Source of the DNA: an uncultured bacterium
GTDB lineage: Bacteria; Actinomycetota; Acidimicrobiia; Spongiisociales; ZC4RG35
Direction of reading: 5' to 3'
DNA length: 64,000 nt
NCBI GenBank assembly: GCA_963753285.1
Contig: CAVWBT010000010.1
Coordinates: 240,481-304,480, forward strand
Below are positions 21,676 to 62,912 of this stretch, in pieces; position 1 is the stretch's first letter, and each line of letters starts with the position of its first letter. The notes below the pieces were generated by a model. The model did not search any database. It was given only the letters and a program-made list of their open reading frames with translations, and was not told the origin of the DNA. A program made the position numbers and the translations under genes.

Positions 21676-21873
21676 TCAGTCAATGGTTTCTTCGGCCCAG
21701 ATGAGGTCGTTTTTCGCGACCTCGCCCAGAGCGCGAGAAAAACCACGCGGCCGGGTGACGGCCTTAGTTGGGGAAGTCATCCGAAGATGCGAGCGGGAAG
21801 GTATCGACCCGTCGACCAACGCGAAAACCCAACAGGCCTGGATTTTTCGCGCTCCATCGAGGGGATCGTCCCC

Positions 21874-22350
21874 TCACAGCTCGCGGGACATCCAGCCGGT
21901 GTCGTACCAGGTGTCGAACTTGTAGCCGACCTTGGGGAACGTGCCGACGTAGGAGAACCCGAGCGCACGGTGGAACTCCACGCTCTTGTCGTTCGGCAGC
22001 GTGATCCCTGCCACGGCGGTGACGAATCCGAGGGTGGCGAGTTGATCGAGGAGCTCCTCGTAGAGACGTCGACCAACCCCTCGGCCGTGGTGTTCGGCGG
22101 CGACGTAGACGGTGGTCTCCGCGGTGTAGCGGTAGGCGTGTCTCGAACGCCACGGCGTTCCGTAGGCATACCCGCGGATCTCTCCGTCGGTCTCGTCGAC
22201 CAGCCAGACATGGGCAGCCTCCACCCGCCGGGCGATCTCCTCCGCGTCGGGAGGTGTCTCTTCGAACGAGATCGCCGAGTCGGTGACATATGGTGCATAG
22301 ATCTCGGCGATGCGCCCTGCATCGTCGCGGGTTGCGGTCCGGATGTGCAT
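21874..22350 (-). CDS. GNAT family N-acetyltransferase
   Basis: Internal ATG at 22350. Acetyl-CoA-binding motif HHGRGVGRRLYEEL. Confidence 0.8.
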   Translation of the reverse strand: MHIRTATRDDAGRIAEIYAPYVTDSAISFEETPPDAEEIARRVEAAHVWLVDETDGEIRGYAYGTPWRSRHAYRYTAETTVYVAAEHHGRGVGRRLYEELLDQLATLGFVTAVAGITLPNDKSVEFHRALGFSYVGTFPKVGYKFDTWYDTGWMSREL

Positions 22351-40652: not shown

Positions 40653-40747
40653 CCGCCGCTCACCCTTCGTCGTGATCCTGCGGCGTCTCCAGCAACCCTG
40701 GCCTGCCTGCAGTGGGGCTCGGACGGCGGTGCGGTTACCCTTTCCGC

Positions 40748-41860
40748 ATGCCCCCGGCACCCCTCGAGATCGGTCGATTGTCGGTCGACCCGCCCGTCGT
40801 GCTCGCCCCGATGGCGGGTGTCACGAACGCGCCGTTCCGTCGGCTGTGCCGGCAGTTCGGGGCCGGGATCTATGTCTGCGAGATGATCGGTGCCCGCTCC
40901 CTGGTCGAGGGAGACGAGAAGACGAGGCTGCTTGCGACGTTCCCCGAGGACGAGTCACCGCGCTCGATCCAGCTCTACGGGACCGACGCGCACTACGTGG
41001 GTCGGGCCGTGGAACACCTGGTCACCGAGGGTGGCGCGGATCACGTCGACCTCAACTTCGGGTGCCCGGCACCGAAGGTGACTCGCAACGGTGGGGGAGC
41101 GGCGTTGCCGTTCAACCGCGATCTGTACCGTGACATCGTTCGGGCCGCGGTCGCCAACGCCGGTGACGTGCCGATCACCGTCAAGTTCCGCAAGGGCATC
41201 GACGACGAGCACCTCACGTACCTGGACACCGGCCGGATCGCCCAGGACGAGGGCGTGTCGGCGGTCGGGCTGCACGCCCGGACCGCCGAAGAGCTCTACT
41301 CCGGTCATGCCGATTGGAACGCGATCGCCACGCTGAAGGATGCCCTCGACGTCCCGGTGCTGGGCAACGGCGACATCTGGGAGGCGAGCGATGCCATCAG
41401 GATGGTCGACGAGACCGGCTGCGACGGGGTGATCGTGGGTCGCGGTTGCCTCGGGCGGCCGTGGCTGTTCGGTGACCTGGCGAAGGTCTTCGCCGGTGAG
41501 GAGGTCGTCACGATCCCAGACCTCGGATACGTCGCCGACACGATGGAGACCCACGCTGCTCTCCTCATCGACTGGTTCGGCGAGTACCGGGGCATCCGCA
41601 GCTTCCGCAAGCACACGTCGTGGTACCTCAAGGGGTATCCGGTCGGCCCCGAGATCCGCCGCCGACTCTCGACAGTGGAGTCACTCGACGAGTTGGCCGC
41701 CATCACTGCGACGTTCGATCGCCACGCCCAGCCCCACGATGGCGCCTCACGCATGGCGAGAGGCCACACCCACGGCCCCCGCCCCGTCAGACTCCCACAC
41801 CGCTATCTCGAGGGCGGCTGGAACCACCCGGTCCCCGAACTCGCCGTCTCCGGCGGCTGA
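40748..41860 (+). CDS. tRNA-dihydrouridine synthase
   Basis: Dus signature LAPMAGVTNAPFRRL...NFGCPAPKV. ATG at 40748. Confidence 0.85.
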   Translation: MPPAPLEIGRLSVDPPVVLAPMAGVTNAPFRRLCRQFGAGIYVCEMIGARSLVEGDEKTRLLATFPEDESPRSIQLYGTDAHYVGRAVEHLVTEGGADHVDLNFGCPAPKVTRNGGGAALPFNRDLYRDIVRAAVANAGDVPITVKFRKGIDDEHLTYLDTGRIAQDEGVSAVGLHARTAEELYSGHADWNAIATLKDALDVPVLGNGDIWEASDAIRMVDETGCDGVIVGRGCLGRPWLFGDLAKVFAGEEVVTIPDLGYVADTMETHAALLIDWFGEYRGIRSFRKHTSWYLKGYPVGPEIRRRLSTVESLDELAAITATFDRHAQPHDGASRMARGHTHGPRPVRLPHRYLEGGWNHPVPELAVSGG

Positions 41861-41874
41861 GTCGGTATCGACCA

Positions 41875-42578
41875 GGGGGACGATCCCCCTGAACCCCCCT
41901 GATGGCATGTCCGCCGTCGGGTTGCACGGCCCGCAGCCAGCATCCCGGGTCTGTGTTGGTCTGGGGGACGATCCCCTTGAACCCCCCTGATGGCATGTCC
42001 GCCGTCGGGTTGCACGGCCCGCAGCCAGTATCCCGGGTCTGTGTTGGTCTGGGGGACGATCCCCTTGAACCCCCCTGATGGCATGTCCGCCGTCGGGTTG
42101 CACGGCCCGCAGCCAGTATCCCGGGTCTGTGTTGGTCTGGGGGACGATCCCCTTGAACCCCCCTGATGGCATGTCCGCCGTCGGGTTGCACGGCCCGCAG
42201 CCAGTATCCCGGGTCTGTGTTGGTCTGGGGGACGATCCCCTTGAACCCCCCTGATGGCATGTCCGCCGTCGGGTTGCACGGCCCGCAGCCAGTATCCCGG
42301 GTCTGTGTTGGTCTGGGGGACGATCCCCTTGAACCCCCCTGATGGCATGTCCGCCGTCGGGTTGCACGGCCCGCAGCCAGTATCCCGGGTCTGTGTTGGT
42401 CTGGGGGACGATCCCCTTGAACCCCCCTGATGGCATGTCCGCCGTCGGGTTGCACGGCCCGCAGCCAGTATCCCGGGTCTGTGTTGGTCTGGGGGACGAT
42501 CCCCTTGAACCCCCCTGATGGCATGTCCGCCGTCGGGTTGCACGGCCCGCAGCCAGCATCCCGGGTCTGTGTCGATGT
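41875..42578. repeat. tandem repeat array, 8 x 88 bp
   Basis: Units start at 41875, 41963, 42051, 42139, 42227, 42315, 42403 and 42491. They are near-identical; the first and last units are slightly diverged. The unit begins GGGGGACGATCCCC (a hairpin). There are no variable spacers. The period is not a multiple of 3. Confidence 0.9.
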
Positions 42579-42927
42579 CGGAGACGATCGATTGATGGCC
42601 TGGGTGATCGGGCGGTCAGAGGGGCGTTGTGATGCGCCGCGAGCCCTCCGGGTTCGAACCCCCCTTGGCTTGCTGGCGCAAGCCTGTTCCCCCTGAGGGG
42701 GAACGAACAACGAGTCCGTCGTTTGGGGGGCATTGTGTGTCCCCTCTCTGGGGGGGACACGCTGCCGCCAGGCAGCGAGGGGGGCGTCGGCGCCCGGGGT
42801 AGGAAGCCCCGAAGGCTTGCGCCAGGCGGCCAGGGGGGAGTTGTGGTCATGACGCAACCACATCGGTTCTGCAGCCGCGGCACGCGACCCCCTTGTGTGC
42901 GGGTTTGCCGAGTGGCATATCGAGCAG

Positions 42928-43290
42928 ATGAAGTTCAGGACGACACCGGATCTGCAGTATCACGCACGAGAGATGCGAGGGGAGATGACCGTCTCCGAGC
43001 GCGCCGCCTGGAACGAGTTGAAGGGCAAGAAGCTGGGCGTCAGGTTTCGTCGGCAGGTGGTGATCGGTCCGTACATCGTCGATTTCGCCTGCTTCGATCC
43101 GCGCCTCGCGATCGAGATCGACGACCCGTCCCACGAGTATCGAGACGAGACGGTCCGGACGTCGTACATCGAGAGCCAGGGCTTCACCATGCTCCGATTC
43201 ACCAACGAGTTCGTGGCGAAGCACGGTGTCGGGAACTCGATCGCGAACTGGCTCGAGCAGAACCACGGACTGCACCAACCCTGGCGGTGA
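42928..43290 (+). CDS. DUF559 endonuclease-domain protein (Vsr-like fold)
   Basis: MTVSERAAWNELKGKKLGVRFRRQVVIGPYIVDFACFDPRLAIEIDD is the typical DUF559 core. ATG at 42928; alternative GTG at 42895. Confidence 0.7.
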   Translation: MKFRTTPDLQYHAREMRGEMTVSERAAWNELKGKKLGVRFRRQVVIGPYIVDFACFDPRLAIEIDDPSHEYRDETVRTSYIESQGFTMLRFTNEFVAKHGVGNSIANWLEQNHGLHQPWR

Positions 43291-43459
43291 CAACCCCCGT
43301 GGCTTGCTGGCGCATTGTTTGTCCCTTCTTTGGGGGGACAGGCCGCCCTCTGGGGCGGCCAGGGGGGTGTCGTGCCGGCGGCGCCACACGCTGACACGAG
43401 CGATGGCGCCTTGGGGTGACAGCCGCCGCGTGGGAAAGGCTGCGCGTACCCTGCCTGGC

Positions 43460-45286: not shown

Positions 45287-46432
45287 ATGGTCAGTCAACG
45301 CCTCGAGCCGTTCGGGTCGACGATCTTCACCGAGATCTCGGCGCTCTCGCGTCAACACGGCGCGACCGACCTCGGCCAGGGCTATCCGACGTTCGAAGGC
45401 CCCGAGTCCGTCAAGCAGGCCGCCATCGAGGGCTTGCGCAGCGGGTGGAACCAGTATCCGCCGATGATGGGGATGACCGAGCTCCGCACCGCCGTGGCGG
45501 ACCGCTGGCGCAAGGACACGGGTCTTCTCGCCGACCCGGACAGAGAGATCACGGTCACCTCCGGCGCGACCGAGGCATTGGCGGCCACTTTCATCGGGAC
45601 GTTCGATCCCGGCGACGAGGTGATCCTCATCGAGCCCTACTACGACGCCTATCCGGTGGGCTGTGCGCTCTCTGGAGCCGTTCCGCGGTACGTGACGCTG
45701 CACACCCCCGAGTTCCGGCTCGATCCCGAGGCGCTCGAGTCGGTCGTCTCGGAGCGGACCCGGGCGATCCTGATCAACACTCCGCACAACCCCACCGGGA
45801 GGGTGTTCGATCGGACCGAGCTCGAAGCGGTCGCAGATCTCTGCCGTCGCCACGACATGATCGCCATCACCGACGAGGTGTACGAGCGGATGGTCTACGA
45901 CGTCGAACACGTCCGGCTCGCGACCCTGGAGGGCATGGCAGAGCGCACCATCACGATCTCGTCGATCGGCAAGTCGTTCTCGTTCACCGGATGGAAGACC
46001 GGCTGGGCGATCGCCCCACCCGAACACACGGCCGGGATCCGAGCTGCACACCAGTTCCTCACCTTCACGGTGCCGAATGCGATGCAGTACGGGTCGGCGG
46101 CCGCGCTCCGGATCGACGACTCGTACTACGCCGAGTTGACCGATCTGTACCGGTCGAAGCGGGACCGGCTCGTCGCAGGTCTCCGATCGATCGGACTCGA
46201 GGTCTACGAGCCACAGGGCACCTACTTCGTGCTCGCCGACCATCGCCCATTCGGGTTCGCTGACGACGTCTCGTTCGTCCAGCATCTCATCACCGAGGTC
46301 GGGGTCGCCGCCATCCCGCCCTCGGCGTTCTACACGAACTCCGACGAGGGCTCTCGATTGGTCCGGTTCGCCTTCTGCAAAGACGACCGGATCATCGATG
46401 AGGCGCTCGAGAAGCTCGCAGCGATGAAGTGA
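45287..46432 (+). CDS. PLP-dependent aminotransferase (class I/II)
   Basis: PLP-lysine context SIGKSFSFTGWKTGW and fold I length. Confidence 0.85.
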   Translation: MVSQRLEPFGSTIFTEISALSRQHGATDLGQGYPTFEGPESVKQAAIEGLRSGWNQYPPMMGMTELRTAVADRWRKDTGLLADPDREITVTSGATEALAATFIGTFDPGDEVILIEPYYDAYPVGCALSGAVPRYVTLHTPEFRLDPEALESVVSERTRAILINTPHNPTGRVFDRTELEAVADLCRRHDMIAITDEVYERMVYDVEHVRLATLEGMAERTITISSIGKSFSFTGWKTGWAIAPPEHTAGIRAAHQFLTFTVPNAMQYGSAAALRIDDSYYAELTDLYRSKRDRLVAGLRSIGLEVYEPQGTYFVLADHRPFGFADDVSFVQHLITEVGVAAIPPSAFYTNSDEGSRLVRFAFCKDDRIIDEALEKLAAMK

Positions 46433-46533
46433 GGGGTAGGTCCTGACGTCGCACGGAGGCGTTGTGTAGGGTCGCCGGTGTATCACGAGGAGCCGACGAT
46501 GCTCCGCGATGACGTCCGCAACGAGGGGAACCC

Positions 46534-47664
46534 ATGGTCATAGGAAGGCAATACCCGCACAACCACGAAGACCTCGTCACGGTCGGCGGGAAGGAGGTCG
46601 TCTTCGATTCGAGGGGTTTCGAGTACATCGACGACGAGGTGATCGTCGCCGCAGACGATGTCGATGCGGCACTCCGCGTGCTCGCCAAGCGATTCGACGC
46701 ACGCGTCGCAGAGCAGGATGGCGCCACCGACGTGTCGATCATCGAGCTCGCAGCCAACGGGAAACTCCTAGAGATCGTTGCCAGGCTCGAGGCGGCGGGG
46801 ATACCGGCATCACCGAATCACGTGCTCCAGACGACTTGGCACTCCACGGTCATCGGCACCGGACGACCGAAGCCGGCTCGGCCCAACGCCTGGCTCACGA
46901 GTCAACTGAAGAAGAAGCCGAGCGCCCGCCGCCGTCCGGTAGTGGCCGTGATCGACACCGGAATCGTCAAGCACTCGCGATTGGTCAACGTGCGAGGCGT
47001 CGGTCAGGCCACGGATCGCCAGACGGACCCGGCTGCGAAGTCGTTCGGGCACGGCACGTTCGTCGCAGGTCTGATCGCCGCAGAGTGCCCTGACGCGGAC
47101 ATCAAGGTGTTCCGCGCCGAGTTCGGTTCCACCGATGACAACTGGTTCGGCCTGATCACCGACGCCGACCTCGCAGCGTCGATCGATTCCGCGCTGGCCC
47201 GGTTGAAGGTCATCGACGTGATGAATCTGTCGATCGGCGGCTACACGCACGACAACCGCCCATTGTTCGCCACGAGTCGGAGCGTCGCCCGGGCGATCCG
47301 GCGCAACGTCACCGTTGTAGCGGGTGCCGGGAACGACGGGCGCCGCGACCCCTTCTACCCCGCTGCAGAACCCGGCGTGATCGGCGTCGGCTCGATCGAC
47401 GCGTCCGGCAAACGGTCGTGCTTCTCGAACATCGGTCCATGGGTCGACGTCGAAGCCGTGGGCGAGGACGTCGTGTCGACGTTCCCGGAGACCGAGGTTC
47501 ACACCATTGCACTCCCCGAGGGCGGCTCCGCCGGGTGTCCCCCGGAACCCGCGTCGCCGGAACAGACCGTCGACTTCACCGGAGGATTCGCGCGGTGGTC
47601 CGGCACGTCCTTCTCGGCGGCACGAGTATCTGGTGCGATCGCTGCCACCCGAATCGGACGCTGA
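46534..47664 (+). CDS. S8-family subtilisin-like serine peptidase, no signal peptide, ~140-aa N-terminal domain
   Basis: Catalytic triad contexts VAVIDTGI (Asp), HGTFVAG (His) and GTSFSAA (Ser). The N-terminus is non-hydrophobic. Confidence 0.85.
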   Translation: MVIGRQYPHNHEDLVTVGGKEVVFDSRGFEYIDDEVIVAADDVDAALRVLAKRFDARVAEQDGATDVSIIELAANGKLLEIVARLEAAGIPASPNHVLQTTWHSTVIGTGRPKPARPNAWLTSQLKKKPSARRRPVVAVIDTGIVKHSRLVNVRGVGQATDRQTDPAAKSFGHGTFVAGLIAAECPDADIKVFRAEFGSTDDNWFGLITDADLAASIDSALARLKVIDVMNLSIGGYTHDNRPLFATSRSVARAIRRNVTVVAGAGNDGRRDPFYPAAEPGVIGVGSIDASGKRSCFSNIGPWVDVEAVGEDVVSTFPETEVHTIALPEGGSAGCPPEPASPEQTVDFTGGFARWSGTSFSAARVSGAIAATRIGR

Positions 47665-50221
47665 AGACTCCGGGCTGAGGCTGGCGGGGGAGGCCTGGGA
47701 CGCGGCCACCTCCGATCCCGACTCCGCCCGTGAGTTGGCGGCTTGGGTGCTGGCGCACAGCGGCTCCCCTCGGGCGCGGGCCCTTGCCGCGCGTGCACTC
47801 GGTGTGGCACTGCGAACGCTGCGTGACCTCCCAGGCGCCCTCACCGCCTTCAAAGAGGCCATCGAGATCGCAGATGGGGACGACCTGCCCGCCGAGCGCG
47901 CATTCGCTCAGGTGCTCCTCGCGGGCGCCGAATTCCTGGCCGGCCGACCCGACCGCTCGCTGGAGCTGCTCGACGCCGCAGTCCCGGACCTCGAGGGGGA
48001 ACAACTGGTGCTGGCGCACATGCAGACGGGCATCGTGCGGGGGCTGTCCGGCGACTTCGCGAACGGTCTCGCGGCGCTGGACTCGATCAGCGATCAGGTG
48101 GGGTCGCTGCCGCTCATGCGGCAGGGGATGTATCACACGAATCGGGCGGCTTGCCTCCTCGGGATCAACCGGGCGACCGAGGCGATCGAGGTCTTCGAGC
48201 AGGCGCTGACGCTCTACGAGCGGGTGGGAGAGCCCCACCTCTCGTCGAACGCGCTCCACAATCTCGCTCGCGCCTACGCCGCTTCAGGTCATGTCGTCGG
48301 TGCGTTGCGTTGCTTCGAACGGGTCGATGCGCTCGGCATCGGGCCGCCGTCCGGTGTCGACCTCGTCGACCGGGCCACGGTGTTCCTTTCGGCCAGCCTC
48401 CTGCAGGAGGCCGAGGACTCGGCGCGACGGGCCAGACAGGCGGCAGCGCGGGCTCCGATCGAGGAGTGGCACCCGGTTGCTTCGATGATCCTCGCCCAGG
48501 CGCTCGAAGCCCTCGGCGACGTCGCTGGCGCCGTCGAGCCGGCGCAGCATGCGATGGAGTTGTTCGAACAGCAGGACCGCCCGAACCTCCGCGATCTCGC
48601 CGAGGCCGTCGAACTGCGCTGCCTCGCTGTGGTCCACGGCGGCGACGGTGTCGCAGAGCGGGCCCGTGCAACCGCAGCCCGGCTGGCCGAGTGGGGTGCT
48701 TCCGCCGAAGCGATCACACTCCTGCTCGGCGTCGTACGACGTTCGATCGATGAACGGTTGATCCGGGCGCAGCTCGAGGCGGCAATGGACATTCGGACCG
48801 CCGGCCTCGGACCCGACGTCCTCCGGGCGGAGGCATTCGCTCGGCTCGCCGTACTCGATGGCGACATCGACAGCATGGAAACCATGGTCGCCGAAGCCTT
48901 CGAGTCGCTCGACGAATGGCGACGGACGATCGGCTCGACGGAACTGCAGGCTGGCGTCGCCCGCCAGGGCGTGCATCTCGCCGATGTCGCGATCGGGGTT
49001 GCGATCGGGCGGCGAGACGCAGCGTCGGCGCTCGAAGCAGTCGAACGCCCTCGGGCGCTGTCGCTGGTCTCGACGAAGGATCGCCCCCGAAACGAGGAAC
49101 TCGACCGTCTGCTCGTCGAGTACCGGGCGCTCGCAGGGCGGTTGGAGACGGGCGGCCACCAAGCCGACAGAAGCCGTCTCGAACGAAGGATCAGGGAGCT
49201 CGGCAGGCTGGCGGACCACACGACGGAGACATCTCGACAGCCGGCAGTCGACACGGCCGTCGAGCGTCTGGTAGGTCGGCGATTGGTGGAGTTCATCGAT
49301 CATCGTGGCTCGATCTTCGCGATCACGGTCTCGGGCGGTGCTCCGATGGAGATGGTCGAGGTCGCCTCGGTCGCAGATGTCCGCTCCGAGATCGACTCAT
49401 TGCGCAGCGCAGTAGCTCGATTGGCGAGTCCGCAGATCTCTCCTGCCGCACGTGACGCGTTCGCCACCGTGCTCGATGCGTCGGCTGGATTCGTCTCCGA
49501 CTGGCTGTTCGGCTCGGTCGACCTCGGAGACGCTTCGTCGGTCCTCGTGGTCCCGTCCCGGTCGCTCGGGTCGCTCCCGTGGTCCGCGCTCCCAGCGCTG
49601 TCCGGCCGTGCGTTCACCGTTGCGCCGTCCTTTCGCCTGTGGGCAGCGATGGATTCGCGAGCGCCGTCAGACTCCGGGCGTGTCGTGGCAGTCGGGCTCG
49701 AGGACCCCCCGTTGGCCTCGATGGAAGCCCGCGCCGTTGCCGAGCTGCGTGGTGGGACGGCCATCGTCGGGGACGAAGCGACCGTGGACGTCGTCGTCCG
49801 CGAGATCGACGGTGCCGGCGTCGCCCATCTGGCCTGCCACGGGGTCTTCCGCGGTGACAACCCCCTGATGTCCTCGCTCTCCATGGCGGATGGGCCGATC
49901 ACGGTCTACGACCTCGAACACCTGCGCGATCCGCCGAGGACGCTCGTGCTCTCCGCGTGTGAGGTCGCGCAGTCCCAGCGCCTCGCCGGAGATGCGCTTC
50001 TCGGCATGACGGCCTCACTGATGGCGGCGGGTACACGGTCGATCATCGCCGCGACCACGGTGGTATCGGACCAGGCGGCGCCCGAGTTCATGGAAGAGTG
50101 GCACCGGAGCCATTCGGAGGGAGCGTCACCGGCCGAGGCATTGGCGCATGCCCGATCTTCGATGTCCGGCGATCCTCGCGCGCGGGCGGTTGCGGCCTCG
50201 TTCCTGTGTCTCGGGGTCTGA
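47642..50221 (+). CDS. TPR-repeat + CHAT-domain (caspase-like) protein
   Basis: An ~860-aa helical-repeat N-terminus, then a C-terminal CHAT core with the His/Cys dyad HLACHG ... LVLSACEVAQ. GTG at 47642 overlaps the S8 gene end; the listed ORF opens at 47507. Confidence 0.75.
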   Translation: MPPESDAEDSGLRLAGEAWDAATSDPDSARELAAWVLAHSGSPRARALAARALGVALRTLRDLPGALTAFKEAIEIADGDDLPAERAFAQVLLAGAEFLAGRPDRSLELLDAAVPDLEGEQLVLAHMQTGIVRGLSGDFANGLAALDSISDQVGSLPLMRQGMYHTNRAACLLGINRATEAIEVFEQALTLYERVGEPHLSSNALHNLARAYAASGHVVGALRCFERVDALGIGPPSGVDLVDRATVFLSASLLQEAEDSARRARQAAARAPIEEWHPVASMILAQALEALGDVAGAVEPAQHAMELFEQQDRPNLRDLAEAVELRCLAVVHGGDGVAERARATAARLAEWGASAEAITLLLGVVRRSIDERLIRAQLEAAMDIRTAGLGPDVLRAEAFARLAVLDGDIDSMETMVAEAFESLDEWRRTIGSTELQAGVARQGVHLADVAIGVAIGRRDAASALEAVERPRALSLVSTKDRPRNEELDRLLVEYRALAGRLETGGHQADRSRLERRIRELGRLADHTTETSRQPAVDTAVERLVGRRLVEFIDHRGSIFAITVSGGAPMEMVEVASVADVRSEIDSLRSAVARLASPQISPAARDAFATVLDASAGFVSDWLFGSVDLGDASSVLVVPSRSLGSLPWSALPALSGRAFTVAPSFRLWAAMDSRAPSDSGRVVAVGLEDPPLASMEARAVAELRGGTAIVGDEATVDVVVREIDGAGVAHLACHGVFRGDNPLMSSLSMADGPITVYDLEHLRDPPRTLVLSACEVAQSQRLAGDALLGMTASLMAAGTRSIIAATTVVSDQAAPEFMEEWHRSHSEGASPAEALAHARSSMSGDPRARAVAASFLCLGV

Positions 50222-50317
50222 ACCGAAACGCGCGTATCAGATGCCGACCGACCGGCTCTGTTGATCATGTCATCCGTCGCCAGGGACGCACGCCACCGAT
50301 CTCTAGGATCGTGCCGT

Positions 50318-50863
50318 ATGTCGGAACGATCGGTCGCGCTGTTGCTCGAGGCTGCCTCGGAGGGAGATCAGGCAGCCTGGAACGCGCTCGTCGACCGGTA
50401 CGGCCGGCTCGTGTGGTCGGTGGTGCGCGGTTTCCGGCTGGACGACGCCGCTGCCCACGACGTCTTTCAGACGGTGTGGCTCCGACTGGTCGAGCACGTC
50501 GATCGGATCCGTGAGCCGGAACGACTGCCGGGATGGCTGTCGATGACCGCCAAGAACGAGTGCATCAGGGTGCTGAAGCGGCAGAAGCGGCAGATCCCGA
50601 GCGACTTCGAATACGACGTCGCCGATCCCACTGCCCGGGACTTCGCCGACCCGCTCATCGATCTCGAATCCATCGAGGTGGCGATCGACGCATTCGAACA
50701 ACTCTCACCCGAACATCAGCAGTTGATGCGGCTGCTGTGCGCGGACCCGCCACTGGACTACGAGACGATCGCATCGATAATCGACCGTCCGATCGGATCG
50801 ATCGGGCCGACGAGGGCGAGATGCATCGCCAAGCTCAGGGCCATCATCGGAGAGGAATCGTGA
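50318..50863 (+). CDS. ECF (sigma-70 family) RNA polymerase sigma factor
   Basis: Region 2 (LVWSVVRGFRLDDAAAHDVFQTVWLRLVEH) and region 4 (YETIASIIDRPIGSIGPTRARCIAKLR). Confidence 0.8.
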   Translation: MSERSVALLLEAASEGDQAAWNALVDRYGRLVWSVVRGFRLDDAAAHDVFQTVWLRLVEHVDRIREPERLPGWLSMTAKNECIRVLKRQKRQIPSDFEYDVADPTARDFADPLIDLESIEVAIDAFEQLSPEHQQLMRLLCADPPLDYETIASIIDRPIGSIGPTRARCIAKLRAIIGEES

Positions 50864-51309
50864 ACGAGCACATCACAGACGACGAGCTCGTCGAAGCAAT
50901 CAAGGCAGGGCTGGAACTCAACGACCCGGTGCCGACCTCCGCGCTCGAAGCGGCCAAAGCCGCCTTCACGTGGCGGACCATCGACGCCGAGCTGGCGGAG
51001 CTGGTGTACGACTCGGCAGAGTCCGGTCTCGTCGGGGTCAGGGGGGAGGCGGCGCGTCAGGTGACCTTCCGCAGCCCCGGAGTCGAGATCGAGGTCATGG
51101 TCGTCGACGAGCGAGCCCGGAGAATCGTCGGACAGCTCGTCCCACCGCAGCAGGCGACCGTCGAGCTGCACACGTCGGCAGGGGTCCGGGAACAGGGCTC
51201 GGACTCGCTCGGCAGGTTCGGCTTCGAAGGAATCGCACCCGGGCCGGTGAAGCTCTCGGTGCAGACTGCCGACGGCGGTACTGTCGTCACCGAATGGACG
51301 ATCATCTGA
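50860..51309 (+). CDS. hypothetical protein co-transcribed with ECF sigma (GTGA overlap), possible anti-sigma/partner
   Basis: 149 aa with no TM or Zn motif. An N-terminal helix, then a probable beta-sandwich. Confidence 0.45.
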   Translation: MNEHITDDELVEAIKAGLELNDPVPTSALEAAKAAFTWRTIDAELAELVYDSAESGLVGVRGEAARQVTFRSPGVEIEVMVVDERARRIVGQLVPPQQATVELHTSAGVREQGSDSLGRFGFEGIAPGPVKLSVQTADGGTVVTEWTII

Positions 51310-52268: not shown

Positions 52269-52445
52269 TGTTCCCCACGCAGTACCGAAAGGTCCCTGCC
52301 GCCTGGGTGTTCCCCACGTAGTGGGGAAAGGTCCCTGCCGGCGAGGAACGAGCCGGGAGGTAAGGGGCCAACTCCCACGCATCGGTGGTCGCGCATGGCG
52401 TGTGCGCTGGAGTTGTCCCCCTTCCTCCGAACCGCCTCGCGATGG
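52269..52445. repeat. MITE-like palindromic repeat element copy 1
   Basis: A 37-bp direct half-repeat, then a 67-bp arm gtgttccccacgtagtggggaaaggtccctgccggcgaggaacgagccgggaggtaaggggccaactcc, a 33-bp loop, and an inverted partial arm ggagttgtcccccttcctcc. Confidence 0.7.
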
Positions 52446-52527
52446 ACCGCCGCCGTCGGATCTACGCGACGCTTGATCCTCTCGAAGGCGGTTCGCAGGG
52501 ACCTTCCCCCAGCGAGCTGGGGGACAT

Positions 52528-55426: not shown

Positions 55427-55523
55427 GGACGGCAGCCTACGGCTGCTGGCTCTTGGCTCTTGGCTCCTGGCGGGCGGTGGAGGCTTCGACGTCGTGACGT
55501 GTGACGTGAGACCCGGCACGATC

Positions 55524-55558
55524 ATCTGTCATCTGTCATCTGTCATCTGTCATCTGTC
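55524..55558. repeat. heptamer microsatellite (atctgtc) x5
   Basis: Perfect tandem copies in the divergent crcB / M23-peptidase intergenic region. gtgacgt x2 lies adjacent. Confidence 0.85.
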
Positions 55559-59107: not shown

Positions 59108-60333
59108 TCCAACGAGTCGCCTATCTCTCGATGCACACCTCGCCGCTCATGCAACCGGGCGTCGGCAACGCCGGCGGTATGAACGTCTACATCGACGAAC
59201 TCGCCCGAACCATGGTCGGTCGTGGCGTCGCCGTCGACGTCTTCACCCGGCGCACAGACCCCGATCAACCGGATCTCGTCGAGGCGGGCGATGGCTACCG
59301 GGTGTTTCACGTCGATGCCGGCCCGCCGGCGCAGGCTCCGATCGGCGACATGGTCGACTGGGTCCACCAGTTCGCCGAAGGTGTGATGGCGGTCCTCGAC
59401 CAGGATCCCCCCGATCTGGTGCACAGTCACTACTGGCTGAGCGGTTCCGCCGGGCTCGTCGTCAAGCGCAAGCTCGGCATCCCGCTGGCGAACTCGTTCC
59501 ACACGCTGGGCCGAGTCAAGGATCTCGCCAAACGATTCGACGAGGCACCGGAGTCGACCGCCCGGATCGCGGCGGAGATGGAGGTCATCGCCGAGTCGGA
59601 CTGTGTCGTCGCCGCCACCCCGCTCGAAGCCCAGGAACTGATGGAGCACTACGGAGCCGATCCGACACGGCTGTGCACGTCACCCCCGGGCATCGACCAC
59701 GAAGTGTTCTCCCCAGGTGACCGGACGAGCGCGCGGCGGGCCGTCGGCTGGCACATCGACGGGACCCACGCGGTGGTCGCCGGGCGGATCCAGCCGTTGA
59801 AGGGGGTCGACGTGGCACTCGAAGCGGCTTCGATCATCGCCTCACAGATTCCCGAGTTTCGGCTCTCGGTGATCGGAGGAGCGTCGGGACCGAGCGGCGA
59901 GGCCGAATTCGAGCGGCTCACAGCCCGCGCCGCCGAACCCGACCTCGCCGGAGTCGTCGACTTCCACGATGCCGTGCCCCACACCGAGCTCGCAGAGTTC
60001 TACCGGGCCGCCGACGTGGTGATGGTCCCTTCCCGCAGCGAGTCCTTCGGCCTGGTCGCGGCCGAGGCCCAGTCGTGTGGCGTGCCCGTGGTCGCAGCAC
60101 GCGTCGGTGGGCTCGAACATGTCGTAGCCGATGGTCGATCCGGCATCCTCGTCGACGGCTGGGATCCGAAGGACCACGCAGACGCAGTGGTCTCCGTGCT
60201 GTCCGACCCGAAGCTCTCGGCCCGATTGTCGTTGGGAGCGCTGCGCTGGTCGGAGCGGTTCAGCTGGGACTCGACCGCAAACCGGTTTCTCGAGCTGTAC
60301 GAGGGAGCCGTCAACCGTGCCGGGCGCGGCTGA
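59104..60333 (+). CDS. mshA: D-inositol-3-phosphate glycosyltransferase MshA (GT4), mycothiol biosynthesis
   Basis: The N-terminus YLSMHTSPLMQPGVGNAGGMNVYI is the MshA hallmark. The GT4 C-terminal motif E(x7)E region is present. Confidence 0.85.
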   Translation: MIQRVAYLSMHTSPLMQPGVGNAGGMNVYIDELARTMVGRGVAVDVFTRRTDPDQPDLVEAGDGYRVFHVDAGPPAQAPIGDMVDWVHQFAEGVMAVLDQDPPDLVHSHYWLSGSAGLVVKRKLGIPLANSFHTLGRVKDLAKRFDEAPESTARIAAEMEVIAESDCVVAATPLEAQELMEHYGADPTRLCTSPPGIDHEVFSPGDRTSARRAVGWHIDGTHAVVAGRIQPLKGVDVALEAASIIASQIPEFRLSVIGGASGPSGEAEFERLTARAAEPDLAGVVDFHDAVPHTELAEFYRAADVVMVPSRSESFGLVAAEAQSCGVPVVAARVGGLEHVVADGRSGILVDGWDPKDHADAVVSVLSDPKLSARLSLGALRWSERFSWDSTANRFLELYEGAVNRAGRG

Positions 60334-60730
60334 GACCCTCTGGGAAGCGATCGAGCGCTGGATCGCCGACGAGGAGTCATCCGTCGAGTACGCCGAGCAG
60401 GTCGATGACCAGATCGCTGTGCGGATGCGTCAGGAAGCGAGAGACGCGTCGACCGTGTGGTGGTCTCCGGGACAGCGATCTCTGACCGCCGAGCTGTTCG
60501 TGATCCCCGAGCCGCACGTGAATCAGGAATCCGTCTACCGGCTGGCGCTCGACCGGAACCGATCGACCTTCCGGGTCCACTACGCCCTGGCGCGAGATGG
60601 CGGCATCGTCCTCCGGTCCCGCCTTTCGAACGAGTCCGTCTCGCTCGAACTGCTCGATCTGGTGCTGGGTGAGCTCTACGACCAGGTCGAGCTCACGTTC
60701 AGGCCGCTGGTGCGGTTGGCGTTCGCCTGA
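60317..60730 (+). CDS. YbjN-domain protein
   Basis: 137 aa. GTG at 60317 overlaps the mshA 3' end. YbjN-like (a YbjN-like gene also follows mshA in mycobacteria). Confidence 0.55.
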   Translation: MPGAAETLWEAIERWIADEESSVEYAEQVDDQIAVRMRQEARDASTVWWSPGQRSLTAELFVIPEPHVNQESVYRLALDRNRSTFRVHYALARDGGIVLRSRLSNESVSLELLDLVLGELYDQVELTFRPLVRLAFA

Positions 60731-60766
60731 ATCGCGAAAGATCTCGCTCGCCCGACGCCAGATTTC

Positions 60767-60787
60767 TTTCCACAGCCACTGTGGAAA
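60767..60787 (+). terminator. perfect 9-bp stem hairpin tttccacag-cca-ctgtggaaa
   Basis: Sits 37 nt downstream of the YbjN-gene stop. Confidence 0.4.
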
Positions 60788-61053
60788 GCAGCTGTGGATC
60801 CGGCCTCCGGTCGCTCGGGTTGGACGAAAGGAGCCTCGTTCTTTCCCGGACGGCGCGACGCGACGCCAAACCCGGGCCCGAACAGAGTCGGAGGAGGGGT
60901 AAGACACGGCAAAACGACCGTGTTGACCGGGTCCCGGCGGGTCGATACGTTCCGCACCACAACGCCCGAGGTGCTCGGTCGTCGATCCTCCGCTCGGGGA
61001 AGTGCGGTCCGATCGTTCGACATGGGTTCCTCGGGCGTTGGCAGTGTCGACCC

Positions 61054-61689
61054 GGGGGACGATCCCCCTGGAACCCCCTGATGGCACACCCGCCCCGCAT
61101 GTCACGCGGCCCGCGGCCAGCAACCCGGGTCTGTGACATGATGGGGGCGATGTCGACCTGGGGGACGATCCCCCTGGAACCCCCTGATGGCACACCCGCC
61201 CCGCATGTCACGCGGCCCGCGGCCAGCAACCCGGGTCTGTGACATGATGGGGGCGATGTCGACCTGGGGGACGATCCCCCTGGAACCCCCTGATGGCACA
61301 CCCGCCCCGCATGTCACACGGCCCGCGGCCAGCAACCCGGGTCTGTGACATGATGGGGGCGATGTCGACCTGGGGGACGATCCCCCTGGAACCCCCTGAT
61401 GGCACACCCGCCCCGCATGTCACGCGGCCCGCGGCCGGCAACCCGGGTCTGTGACATGATGGGGGCGATGTCGACCTGGGGGACGATCCCCCTGGAACCC
61501 CCTGATGGCACACCCGCCCCGCATGTCACGCGGCCCGCGGCCAGCAACCCGGGTCTGTGACATGATGGGGGCGATGTCGACCTGGGGGACGATCCCCCTG
61601 GAACCCCCTGATGGCACACCCGCCCCGCATGTCACGCGGCCCGCGGCCAGCATCCCGGGTCTGGGCTCGCGCAGCACCGTGAGACGTGA
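61054..61689. repeat. tandem repeat array, 6 x 106 bp, related to the 88-bp family
   Basis: Units start at 61054, 61160, 61266, 61372, 61478 and 61584. They share the modules GGGGGACGATCCCCCTGGAACCCCCTGATGGCA and CGGCCCGCGGCCAGCAACCCGGGTCTGTG with the 88-bp unit. The intervening segments differ. Confidence 0.9.
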
Positions 61690-61702
61690 GACGTGAGACG
61701 TG
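61679..61702. repeat. heptamer microsatellite (gtgagac) x3
   Basis: Directly follows array 2. Confidence 0.8.
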
Positions 61703-61707
61703 CCGGT

Positions 61708-62562
61708 CTACTCGATCGTGACCGGGGTGCCGTTGCTGGTGAAACGGACGATCGGGTCGCTGCCGGCCACCGCGAGCATCGAGAAGATCGGGCGGAAGAC
61801 CACGTGGCTGCGCTCGTTGATCGCTCCGGCGACCTTCGCCGCCGGGCGTTCGCCGGTGGGGGCGTCGAGTCGAGCGAATGTGAGTTGCGCGGCTCCTGAC
61901 TCCGTTGTCGGCGCCGAGTCGGCTTCGGGGGAGGGGGCCGTGGTGGTGACCACCGGGACCGTGGTGGTCGGGGTGGGCGGAGCCGTGGTGAGCACCGGGA
62001 CCGTGGTGGTCGTGACTGGTGGAGCGGTGGTGGTCGTGACTGGTGGAGCGGTGGTGGTCGTGACGGGAACGGTGGTGGTCGTGGTCGGCGGGGCAGTGGT
62101 GGTGGTCGTCGGGGCAGGAGCGGCCGACTTCATGAAGACCACCGTCACGAACATGACGCCGTCTCCGGATCGATCGACGCCGACGCCCACGAGGTCGTAG
62201 TCGCCGAGGATGTTCGCCTTGTGGCTCGGCGAGTTCATGAACGCCTGATGGAGGAGGGTGGGATTCGGGCCCATGCCCACGTTCTCGCCGAGGAGAGACC
62301 AGCCCGACGCATAGGAACCGAGTTGGGCGGCCGTGCTGTGGAAGACCTGACCGGCTGCGATCATGTCGGCCGTGTGGACCCTGGCGTCGTCGGTGAGATC
62401 GGCGTGTCCGCCGAGCGGACTCAGCCCGGCGGCGGCCCGACTCTGGTTGATCAGCGAGATGAACTGCGCTTCGTCTCCGGGGCTCGCTGCCACGGGAAGT
62501 GCGGCAGCAGTCATCGCCATGACAACACTCAGAGTGAGAATTGCGCGAAGAATGTGACGCAT
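61708..62562 (-). CDS. secreted CAP-domain (SCP/PR-1-like) protein with Thr/Pro-rich linker
   Basis: ATG at 62562. Signal peptide, CAP motifs (HKANILGDYDLVGVGV), a TTTTTAPPTTTTTVPVTTT... linker encoded by internally repetitive DNA, and a C-terminal domain. Confidence 0.7.
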   Translation of the reverse strand: MRHILRAILTLSVVMAMTAAALPVAASPGDEAQFISLINQSRAAAGLSPLGGHADLTDDARVHTADMIAAGQVFHSTAAQLGSYASGWSLLGENVGMGPNPTLLHQAFMNSPSHKANILGDYDLVGVGVDRSGDGVMFVTVVFMKSAAPAPTTTTTAPPTTTTTVPVTTTTAPPVTTTTAPPVTTTTVPVLTTAPPTPTTTVPVVTTTAPSPEADSAPTTESGAAQLTFARLDAPTGERPAAKVAGAINERSHVVFRPIFSMLAVAGSDPIVRFTSNGTPVTIE

Positions 62563-62616
62563 AGTGAGATCTTCGACCAAATCCCCACAAACTTGAGAGG
62601 CTGTATCTACTCAGCT

Positions 62617-62786
62617 GTCCCCCACGCAAGTGGGGGAAGGGACCCGAGAGGCGAGGAACGAGCCTCACGGGTAGGGGGCGAACTCCAATTCATCCTCGTT
62701 CGCGCCACCGGCTCCGCGGAGTTGGCCCCTTACCTCCCCGGCTCGTTCCTCGCCGGGCAGGGACCTTTCCCCACTTCGTGGGGAAC
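62617..62786. repeat. MITE-like palindromic repeat element copy 2
   Basis: Two ~68-bp inverted arms around a 31-bp loop. The right arm reverse-complements to gttccccacgaagtggggaaaggtccctgcccggcgaggaacgagccggggaggtaaggggccaactcc, about 95% identical to the copy-1 arm. Confidence 0.7.
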
Positions 62787-62912
62787 ATCCCGGTTTTGAT
62801 CCAGCCGGGCGGATGCCCAGACTGCCCTTCATGCGTCCTGCGACTGCCATCGTCGTCATCGTTCTGCTGCTGGTGATCGCCGGAGCGGCGATCTACCAGA
62901 CGGTCGAGCTGC

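Follow-up and report, generated by a model that had tools for sequence, protein, structure and literature searches.

A structured REP/MIRU-like repeat, probably mobile or formerly mobile, forms two tandem arrays in an uncultured member of the Acidimicrobiia

What kind of element is a run of 88-bp, GC-rich, hairpin-containing repeats that begins immediately behind a dus gene? The question is raised by a stretch of 64,000 nucleotides of contig CAVWBT010000010.1 from an uncultured bacterium of the Acidimicrobiia; this whole stretch is referred to as the window. An original prediction, made from the letters alone, had described eight perfect tandem copies and had offered three explanations, namely an element resembling variable-number tandem repeats (VNTRs) or mycobacterial interspersed repetitive units (MIRUs), a protein-binding iteron array and an array of structured RNAs. 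It was found that the repeat belongs to a dispersed sequence family. We favour, with a probability of roughly 0.6, the reading that it is a lineage-specific, mobile or formerly mobile structured repeat of uncultured Acidimicrobiia, similar to MIRUs and to repetitive extragenic palindromic (REP) sequences, which was tandemly amplified by recombination or slippage.

Analysis with Tandem Repeats Finder revealed array 1 at 41875-42572 (period 88, 7.9 copies, 99% matches, score 1375) and array 2 at 61045-61663 (period 106, 5.8 copies, 98% matches, score 1210). The arrays, read with the leader as the first part of each unit, and the borders of array 1 are the following:

41863..42578, plus strand: array 1, eight 88-bp units in the leader-first register (41863, 41951 ... 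42479), as obtained from Tandem Repeats Finder, the covariance model and unit-by-unit comparison
61042..61665, plus strand: array 2, five full 106-bp units and a sixth truncated past CCCGGGTCTG, sharing hairpin 1, the A box and the B box with array 1
41858..41860, plus strand: TGA stop codon of dus; homology with the array-less relative L026 ends at TGAG (41861)
42567..42656, plus strand: degenerate tail after array 1 (TCGATGTCGGAGACGATCGATTGATGGCC...), resembling a collapsed unit start and also the L026 sequence past TGAG

Unit-by-unit comparison of array 1 showed six identical internal units. Unit 1 deviates from them at 8 positions, mainly within its leader, and unit 8 at 1, so that the eight copies are near-perfect and not perfect; the ninth position is unrelated or degenerate. 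Within array 2, units 3 and 4 carry private single-base changes each, and a longer tail pairs with the middle segment, giving an extended hairpin 2 of -40 kcal/mol. The motif GGGGGACGATCCCC was found at 14 exact positions in the window, every one inside the two arrays; allowing up to 2 mismatches gave 19 matches against 3.0 expected, a count reached by 0 of 100 shuffles. For CCCGGGTCTGTG, 14 matches were obtained against 0.85 expected, which no shuffle reached. Both arrays were matched by one covariance model at 99-109 bits. The two tandem arrays are real and belong to one family. Array 2 had been assigned to 61054..61689; the relationship to array 1 was correctly seen, but the array runs from 61042 to 61665, and the CGTGAGA heptamer repeat at 61678-61702 is separate from it.

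The upstream open reading frame (ORF) at 40712-41860 encodes Dus (PF01207, E=8e-85), and the first GGGGG begins 14 nt past its TGA, in agreement with the predicted position directly downstream of dus. The unit boundary, in contrast, is better drawn about 12 nt further upstream, because the leader belongs to the unit. The view that this is not a CRISPR array was borne out, as the units abut without spacers and no Rfam CRISPR-DR hit was obtained; moreover, no cas genes lie near the arrays, the array-flanking and most other scanned ORFs being housekeeping genes in a scan that covered both array flanks and part of the rest of the window. The G+C content of the window is 66.5%, its GC skew is too flat for assigning the replication strand, and the named homologues of its Dus, SAM hydrolase and GT4 proteins were all labelled as metagenome-assembled genomes (MAGs) of Acidimicrobiia, which suggests that the organism belongs to this class.

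The anatomy of the element was derived from an alignment of 16 distinct units, taken from the window and ten other loci. The element measures about 85-130 bp, with observed unit lengths of 88, 89, 104, 106 and 130. It opens with a leader of 5-17 nt, commonly (C)AGTGACAYNGA and usually containing TGA, and continues with hairpin 1, GGGGG(R)-CGA-(Y)CCCCC, which is lengthened by 2-4 flanking pairs and has a folding energy of -13 to -19 kcal/mol. The A box, GAACCCCCUGAUGGCA, is invariant or nearly invariant throughout the family and has the general form GAACCCCC(0-2 nt)GATGGCA. A semi-conserved middle segment of 20-21 nt (CAC-CCGCC-...-CAC), identical within the arrays of the window, leads to hairpin 2, in which GGCCCG and CGGGTC enclose the loop CRGCCAGCAAC (the B box, with the invariant loop GCCAGCAAC) and which is followed by TGTG. 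The tail of 7-24 nt runs into the leader of the next unit. For unit 1 of array 1, the parts are located as follows:

41861..41874, plus strand: leader (GTCGGTATCGACCA), the final 2-3 nt of which extend the stem of hairpin 1
41873..41891, plus strand: hairpin 1 (CAGGGGGA-CGA-UCCCCCUG), about -15 kcal/mol, recurring every 88 nt
41891..41907, plus strand: A box (GAACCCCCCTGATGGCA), nearly invariant in the family
41908..41927, plus strand: semi-variable segment of 20 nt, compared with 21 nt in array 2 and most other loci
41928..41955, plus strand: hairpin 2 and B box (GGCCCG-CAGCCAGCATC-CGGGTC-TGTG), with an invariant G-U stem pair

The hairpin that had been said to open each unit is indeed present in each, although the internal units close with a G-U pair (CCCCT) and not with CCCCC. 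The CCCGGG palindrome is likewise present, but it is merely part of the stem of hairpin 2.

Evidence for an RNA fold is centred on hairpin 1, where two pairs change in a compensatory manner: at the pair that closes the loop, 10 units have A-U, 5 have G-C and 1 has G-U, and at one of the flanking pairs, C-G was seen in 10, G-C in 3 and A-U in 1. Hairpin 2 and a possible pseudoknot between UGAUGGC and GCCAGCA are 90-97% paired and almost invariable, and covariation neither supports nor refutes them. On the plus strand, 35 G-U pairs were counted versus 10 A-C mismatches; if the fold matters, the plus strand is therefore the folding strand. Folding of the whole 88-nt unit was no better than that of shuffled sequences (z = -0.76), and folding of the 106-nt unit was modestly better (z = -2.2), owing to pairing between its tail and the middle segment. 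The suggested structured RNA array is supported for hairpin 1, by covariation, but not for the 88-nt unit as a whole.

No intrinsic terminators, defined as a GC-rich hairpin followed by a U tract, were detected in 41600-43000 and 60300-61800 (0 sites), hairpin 1 continuing into GAACCCCC with no U tract, and scans around the arrays gave no promoter-like sites. Searching the window against Rfam yielded 0 hits at the gathering threshold and, at E<=10, only spurious sub-threshold ones (BLV_package, 21 bits vs 70); eight related loci gave nothing besides a tRNA. The BLV_package and Clostridiales-2 hits are look-alikes of hairpin 1, far below threshold. Three further candidates were set aside: a hammerhead core, suggested by eye from CUGAUG and GAA motifs, misfits in order and spacing, and no ribozyme family scored; a guide-RNA-like variable segment is unlike spacers, the 20-21-nt segment being semi-conserved and identical within arrays; and for recoding or read-through of TGA in the manner of a selenocysteine insertion sequence, a second in-frame TGA is present in the window and L005, but not in L006, L009, L010 and L002.

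The original prediction had made the idea of a family depend on the conserved modules occurring elsewhere, and elsewhere they were found. Two scans, one of GTDB representative genomes and one of metagenome contigs, recovered 10 further contigs from uncultured bacteria, 3 of them from GTDB representative genomes (MAG contigs) and 7 from metagenomes; the pattern of the genome-collection scan demanded the ACGAT loop form, so that GGGGGGCGACCCCCC variants are undercounted. The covariance model built from the alignment scores the elements of all ten contigs at 89-109 bits and additionally reveals decayed copies in L005 (8016-8116, 62 bits) and at the end of L022 (35 bits). Copy number and state vary between loci. 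L001 and L009 hold single copies; L002 has two diverged units, with differences at the loop pair of hairpin 1 and in the middle segment; the three diverged units of L007 retain intact boxes, although many positions of their middle segments have changed; L004 has two units immediately past a tRNA-Val gene; L010 has two 130-bp units; and L005 contains one copy with a degenerate stub, as well as its decayed copy 2.5 kb away. Four contigs (L003, L006, L008, L022) end inside the element, as is expected if tandem copies break short-read assemblies. In every array, in the window and at the other loci, the units are arranged head-to-tail. The element is thus a defined sequence family at unrelated loci in several related genomes, with arrays of 2-8 units. 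Among the three explanations initially offered, the VNTR/MIRU-like one comes closest, although the dispersed, single, diverged and decayed copies go beyond a local VNTR. Viral contigs, plasmids and phages showed no similarity to the element by BLAST and a viral-contig scan.

The genes next to the element are mutually unrelated housekeeping genes (Dus, NuoD, an ECF-type sigma factor of the sigma-70 family, an M42 peptidase, an MFS transporter, a SnoaL-like protein, tRNA-Val), and its orientation relative to them is variable, some copies being antisense to both neighbours or lying beside a divergent gene start. Its position is preferential, immediately 3' of a TGA: at 9 of 12 independent loci, the 17 nt 5' of hairpin 1 contain a TGA, compared with 17% of random 17-nt windows (P = 1.5e-5). 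At half of the loci (6 of 12), this leader-borne TGA is the stop codon of a co-oriented gene, and at these six loci the extended stem has its base 2-11 nt from the TGA. A solitary hairpin was also found in the window:

21859..21878, minus strand: solo hairpin 1 (UGAGGGGACGAUCCCCUCGA), which overlaps the TGA at the end of a GNAT acetyltransferase gene

Syntenic contigs of relatives, recovered via their Dus, SAM hydrolase and GT4 homologues, allowed the two array sites to be compared. Behind dus, no element was found in L026 (Dus 94% identical in amino acids), where TGAG is followed by about 150 bp and an AEC-family transporter gene, in L011 (92%), with a TAG stop and 137 bp to an EamA gene, in L012 and L013 (84%), with 30 bp to an aminotransferase gene, or in L027. 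The window and L026 are homologous exactly as far as TGAG (41861), and homology begins again at 42657. The first 42 nt past TGAG in L026 show a faint resemblance to a collapsed hairpin 1 and A box. At the second site, the insertion point is marked by a further structure:

60962..61042, plus strand: conserved 80-nt stem-loop (AACGCCCGAGG...CCTCGGGCGTT) directly 5' of array 2

This stem-loop lies between the convergent YbjN-like and CAP-domain genes and is conserved at >90% in L014, L024 and L029, relatives in which coding DNA is about 78-80% identical; its consensus fold has -50 kcal/mol. No compensatory changes were seen among three sequences and no Rfam match was obtained, and the structure is a candidate for a conserved RNA or a bidirectional terminator. 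Directly past it, the site is empty in L014, L024, L025 and L028. In L022 (SAM hydrolase 92%), it is occupied by an element with an intact A box and a decayed second half, in which the contig ends, and in L029 (GT4 92%) by a different hairpin repeat, of the type flanking the DUF559 gene of the window. Since relatives have an empty site, a decayed copy or a foreign repeat there, the array-2 position is an insertion hot spot at which the element is not maintained. Taken over both sites, the element is present, absent or decayed at orthologous positions.

Occurrence at unrelated loci, insertion and decay polymorphism, lack of an association with a gene class, variable orientation and recently homogenised arrays together make up the signature of the class of small intergenic repeats, selfish or near-neutral, that comprises REPs, MIRUs and miniature inverted-repeat transposable elements (MITEs). 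On this basis, we propose that the element spread, or still spreads, as a non-autonomous mobile element whose hairpin 1 and invariant boxes would be recognised in trans by an enzyme encoded outside the window. Insertions would persist where they are harmless, directly past stop codons and between convergent genes. Once two copies adjoin head-to-tail, unequal recombination or replication slippage could expand and homogenise them to 99%-identical units; the arrays are best explained in this way, self-adjacent insertion being possible as well. For the invariance of the boxes, the simplest explanation is selection acting on the element itself, where only copies that are recognisable to the propagating agent leave descendants, and the decayed copies of L022 and L005 argue against a strong constraint at the level of the host. 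The enrichment just past TGA could reflect a target preference, the survival of harmless insertions, or both. Transcription of the upstream gene would give a plus-strand RNA with a hairpin of -13 to -19 kcal/mol 2-11 nt past the stop codon, and such a hairpin may act in a REP-like manner or as a ribosome termination structure, blocking 3' exonucleases and insulating against re-initiation. Any such effect on the 3' ends of upstream mRNAs is likely an incidental by-product and not the reason for the existence of the element.

Several observations weigh against the mobile-repeat reading. No transposase gene, REP-associated tyrosine transposase (RAYT) gene or HUH gene was found among the Pfam-scanned ORFs of the window, which cover both array flanks and part of the window, or beside other copies. 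Terminal inverted repeats are lacking, the best inverted alignment of 5' and 3' ends scoring within the shuffle range in 5 units. Comparison of filled with empty sites (window vs L026, L014 and L024) revealed no clean target-site duplication, with base-level resolution limited by the divergence of the relatives. About 13 independent loci are known, which leaves the statistics of target preference and orientation thin. In the relatives whose sites are empty, about 20% of the DNA is different (L011 is about 78% identical), so that gain here is not distinguishable from loss elsewhere. At dus in particular, judging from the alignment, gain in the lineage of the window cannot be cleanly separated from loss in L026, because the L026 sequence past TGAG faintly resembles a collapsed hairpin 1 and A box. 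Lastly, the invariance of the A and B boxes, retained even in the diverged array of L007, could equally reflect selection by the host on an RNA.

This last point leads to the alternative that survives best, though we regard it as unlikely: a structured RNA that serves the host, folded into hairpin 1 and a hairpin-2 pseudoknot in which UGAUGGC of the A box pairs with the loop sequence GCCAGCA. Such an RNA would act in cis within 3' untranslated regions, with a role in stability, in termination or in the insulation of translation; arranged in an array, it would instead be a multivalent sponge or a small-RNA precursor, for instance with C-rich single strands pairing to G-rich ribosome-binding sites. 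The covariation of hairpin 1 and the plus-strand G-U excess are in line with this proposal, as are boxes that stay invariant amid drifting neighbours, also within the three units of L007, and the location of 6 of 12 loci, co-oriented, directly past a stop codon. Between the A box and the B loop, 6 of 7 positions can pair, a single C-to-U change retaining a G-U pair, and the 106-nt unit folds better than shuffles. The 88-nt unit does not, however, and hairpin 2 and the pseudoknot give no informative covariation because their pairs never vary. Several copies are antisense to both neighbours, past a tRNA gene or in the promoter region of divergent genes. Array 2 is located between convergent genes, on the far side of a strong and conserved stem. 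Close relatives have empty sites or decayed copies at the orthologous positions, the element shows no association with any gene class, and Rfam contains no match.

Somewhat less probable still is the idea that the invariant boxes and hairpin 1 define a new structured nucleic-acid element with a biochemistry of its own, either a single-stranded mobile element that is moved by a novel enzyme, targets the position directly past TGA stop codons and can insert beside itself to form arrays, or an array that is transcribed and processed to trans-acting, pseudoknotted RNAs of unit length.

A caveat compatible with any of these readings is that the element is real but the array lengths of 8 and 6 copies are an artefact of assembly, a shorter repeat having been collapsed or over-expanded. 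The six identical units of array 1 represent 528 bp of perfect periodicity, which short reads cannot count, and four related contigs break within the element. We nevertheless consider such an artefact doubtful: private variants in units 3 and 4 of array 2 and distinct end units in both arrays point to individually resolved units, independent assemblies carry 2-3 tandem units, and a 100%-identical GT4 protein on a 434-kb contig suggests a long-read or high-quality assembly.

The iteron-like reading, in which the A and B boxes are recognised as duplex DNA by a nucleoid-associated, gyrase-like or recombinase protein, has poor prospects. Two invariant boxes of 14-25 bp are separated by a spacer that is conserved in length (20-21 bp) and variable in sequence, and TGATGGC and GCCAGCA form an imperfect inverted repeat. 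Enterobacterial REPs and bacterial interspersed mosaic elements (BIMEs) bind proteins of such types (PMC2817692). On the other hand, no replicon, partition or recombinase context was found among the scanned ORFs of the window and no plasmid or phage similarity was detected, which counts against the iterons initially suggested. Furthermore, the compensatory changes and G-U pairs of hairpin 1 suggest a single-stranded fold and not a duplex, and single and decayed copies are scattered over unrelated loci.

A protein-coding repeat, made of the long minus-strand ORFs or of a plus-strand chain of small ORFs starting at the AUG of UGAUGG and coupled in the style of MIRUs, can be dismissed, as it had been from the outset: although all frames of the minus strand are free of stops over array 1 (ORFs 41747-42883 and others) and, by reading, the A-box AUG of array 1 opens a 58-codon frame that closes at the A-box UGA two units on (UGAUG overlap), the minus-strand ORFs across the array have no Pfam family and failed the GC3 codon-position filter, none of the unit lengths (88, 89, 104, 106, 130) is a multiple of 3, the 20/21-nt middle segment shifts the frame of the invariant B box between copies, the A-box AUG frame stops elsewhere in array 2 and the UGA is absent in three variants (CGAUGG).

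Other repeats were observed in the vicinity and in the relatives. Heptanucleotide microsatellites of 3-10 copies are strikingly common in the intergenic DNA of this clade of Acidimicrobiia, often directly 3' of the element and also elsewhere. Their heptamers vary (TCATCTG, CGTGAGA, GGGCGTG, CCGATGA, AACTGTG and others), and some resemble a leader or tail motif (TGTCATC, GTGAGAC). They were located at the following positions:

55447-55471, 55522-55558 and 61678-61702: heptamer microsatellites of the window
L002 287-371; L007 3771-3799; L008 2219-2251; L009 152-220 and 1736-1762: heptamer microsatellites of relatives
L014 4385-4416 and 4923-4958; L022 1838-1860 and 2842-2881; L024 952-979: heptamer microsatellites of relatives

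A related family is found in L024 (100-400 on the minus strand, and 1928-2180); it has the same GGGGGGCGACCCCCC hairpin and CAGCAAC motif, with differing boxes GTGTGGGGGGCGACCCCCCACAC CCCCCGGGCC...GGCAGCAACGGTG, and is adjoined by a three-copy tandem repeat of about 60 bp. Past array 1, a similarity to the Rfam family whalefall-1 at 42737-42788 (21 bits vs gathering 37, E=0.011) was dropped, as it does not recur beside other copies. It covers a pair of hairpins, GTGTCCCC...GGGGGACAC and GCTGCC...GGCAGC; similar hairpin pairs lie past the element in L004, L005 and L009, where no Rfam hit was obtained. The adjacent DUF559 gene (42895-43290, with a Vsr-like endonuclease fold) has no counterpart at this site in L026, L011 and L012. 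On either side, it is flanked (42655-43443) by hairpin repeats of about 100 bp with G/C runs (CCCCCNTGGCTTGCTGGCGCA...), located at 42659 and 43293 on the plus strand and at 42839 on the minus strand, and this repeat is the one present at the array-2 site of L029. The gene and its flanking repeats look like a small mobile cassette; a literature search on DUF559 cassettes found nothing. Another dispersed structured repeat, TCCCCAC-loop-GTGGGGA followed by AAGGTCCCTGCCGGCGAGGAACGAGCC..., is located at 52269-52367, 52410-52525 and 62615-62790 and has no Rfam match. Two of its copies are direct repeats near 52.3 kb, and an inverted pair forms a large palindrome between the start of the CAP-domain gene and the SAM hydrolase gene's end. 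Inside the CAP-domain gene (61708-62580, minus strand), in-frame tandem repeats of 21/24 bp at 61930-62120 encode a low-complexity linker rich in Thr, Pro and Val, and several related contigs end in this gene. A block of 4.8 kb at 46427-51267, with genes for a subtilase, a TPR-CHAT protein and an ECF-type sigma factor, is absent in L011, the closest syntenic relative, and present in L012.

Most of what is known about small structured repeats in intergenic DNA, for instance REP, MIRU, Correia and BOX elements, comes from cultured pathogens and Proteobacteria. A REP/MIRU-type family is now documented in an uncultured lineage of Acidimicrobiia. Its composite architecture is unusual, and it is strongly associated with TGA stop codons. 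In practical terms, the element breaks short-read assemblies, several contigs ending inside it, marks intergenic insertion hot spots and would suit as a VNTR-type strain marker. If the boxes are the recognition site of a mobilising enzyme or part of an RNA fold, the element would offer a tractable entry to a new mechanism of repeat propagation; otherwise, it is an ordinary, though undescribed, genomic repeat.

Among known systems, the MIRUs and VNTRs of the Mycobacterium tuberculosis complex share with the element the phylum Actinomycetota, intergenic tandem units (40-100 bp, at many loci, in arrays of varying length), a position at gene boundaries and presumed mobility. The copy number of MIRUs also varies between strains; for the element, tandem units and presence or absence between species were observed. 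MIRUs are described as mobile and as inserting at gene boundaries, where they carry a small ORF coupled to the neighbouring gene and insert at start codons (PMC12548453). The present element, in contrast, has no conserved frame, lies past stop codons, contains two conserved hairpins and also occurs in single copies.

The REPs, BIMEs and REPINs of Proteobacteria are likewise GC-rich extragenic stem-loops, often 3' of genes, dispersed, clustered and differing from one relative to another. For REPs, short hairpin repeats based on a palindrome of 20-40 bp that ends in GTAG or CGTC, roles in termination and in the stability of mRNA have been proposed (PMC3733652), and they are thought to be mobilised in trans (PMC3733652, PMC2817692). 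They differ in being single palindromes with the GTAG/CGTC tag, often in alternating orientation and linked to RAYTs, whereas the element is a head-to-tail composite of 85-130 bp with two unlike hairpins and invariant unpaired boxes. The flanks of hairpin 1 (...CGACCA/TCGA, GGGGG...CCCCC, TGG/TCGA) carry no GTAG or CGTC at the stem end, CGTC being present within the loop on the minus strand, and no RAYT or Y1/HUH genes were found among the scanned window ORFs or in the flanks of other copies.

MITEs and the palindrome-associated elements derived from IS200/IS605 resemble the element in being small, non-autonomous, structured and polymorphic in insertion. Insertion sequences of the IS200/IS605 types insert 3' of a short specific sequence and carry subterminal hairpins. 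The order of TGA, leader and hairpin in the element parallels this insertion 3' of a fixed target, and the enrichment of TGA 5' of hairpin 1 fits a target preference; yet the ends of IS200/IS605 elements bear similar hairpins, and hairpins 1 and 2 are unrelated in sequence. The Y1 transposase (TnpA) was not found in the DNA examined. From MITEs, the element is distinguished by its lack of terminal inverted repeats; a clear target duplication was not seen either, at the resolution that the diverged relatives allow.

The neisserial intergenic mosaic elements (NIMEs) and Correia elements of Neisseria also form intergenic arrays of conserved modules and variable segments, and they affect flanking transcripts. 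Inverted dRS3 repeats delimit the units of NIMEs, and terminal inverted repeats with a TA duplication characterise Correia elements; neither feature is seen in the element, and Neisseria belongs to another phylum. Stable structures directly past stop codons have been reported as widespread (PMC7518266). The element resembles such stop-proximal structures, among them the ribosome termination structure and REPs within 15 nt of a stop codon: its hairpin 2-11 nt past the stop at six loci has the position described for the ribosome termination structure (PMC7518266). The latter is a generic energetic feature, however, and the element is a sequence family that is also found away from stop codons. 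The hairpin sequence was in no publication found by a literature search. A member of no named family, the element is a new, previously undescribed example of a REP/MIRU-type repeat, set apart from MIRUs by description.

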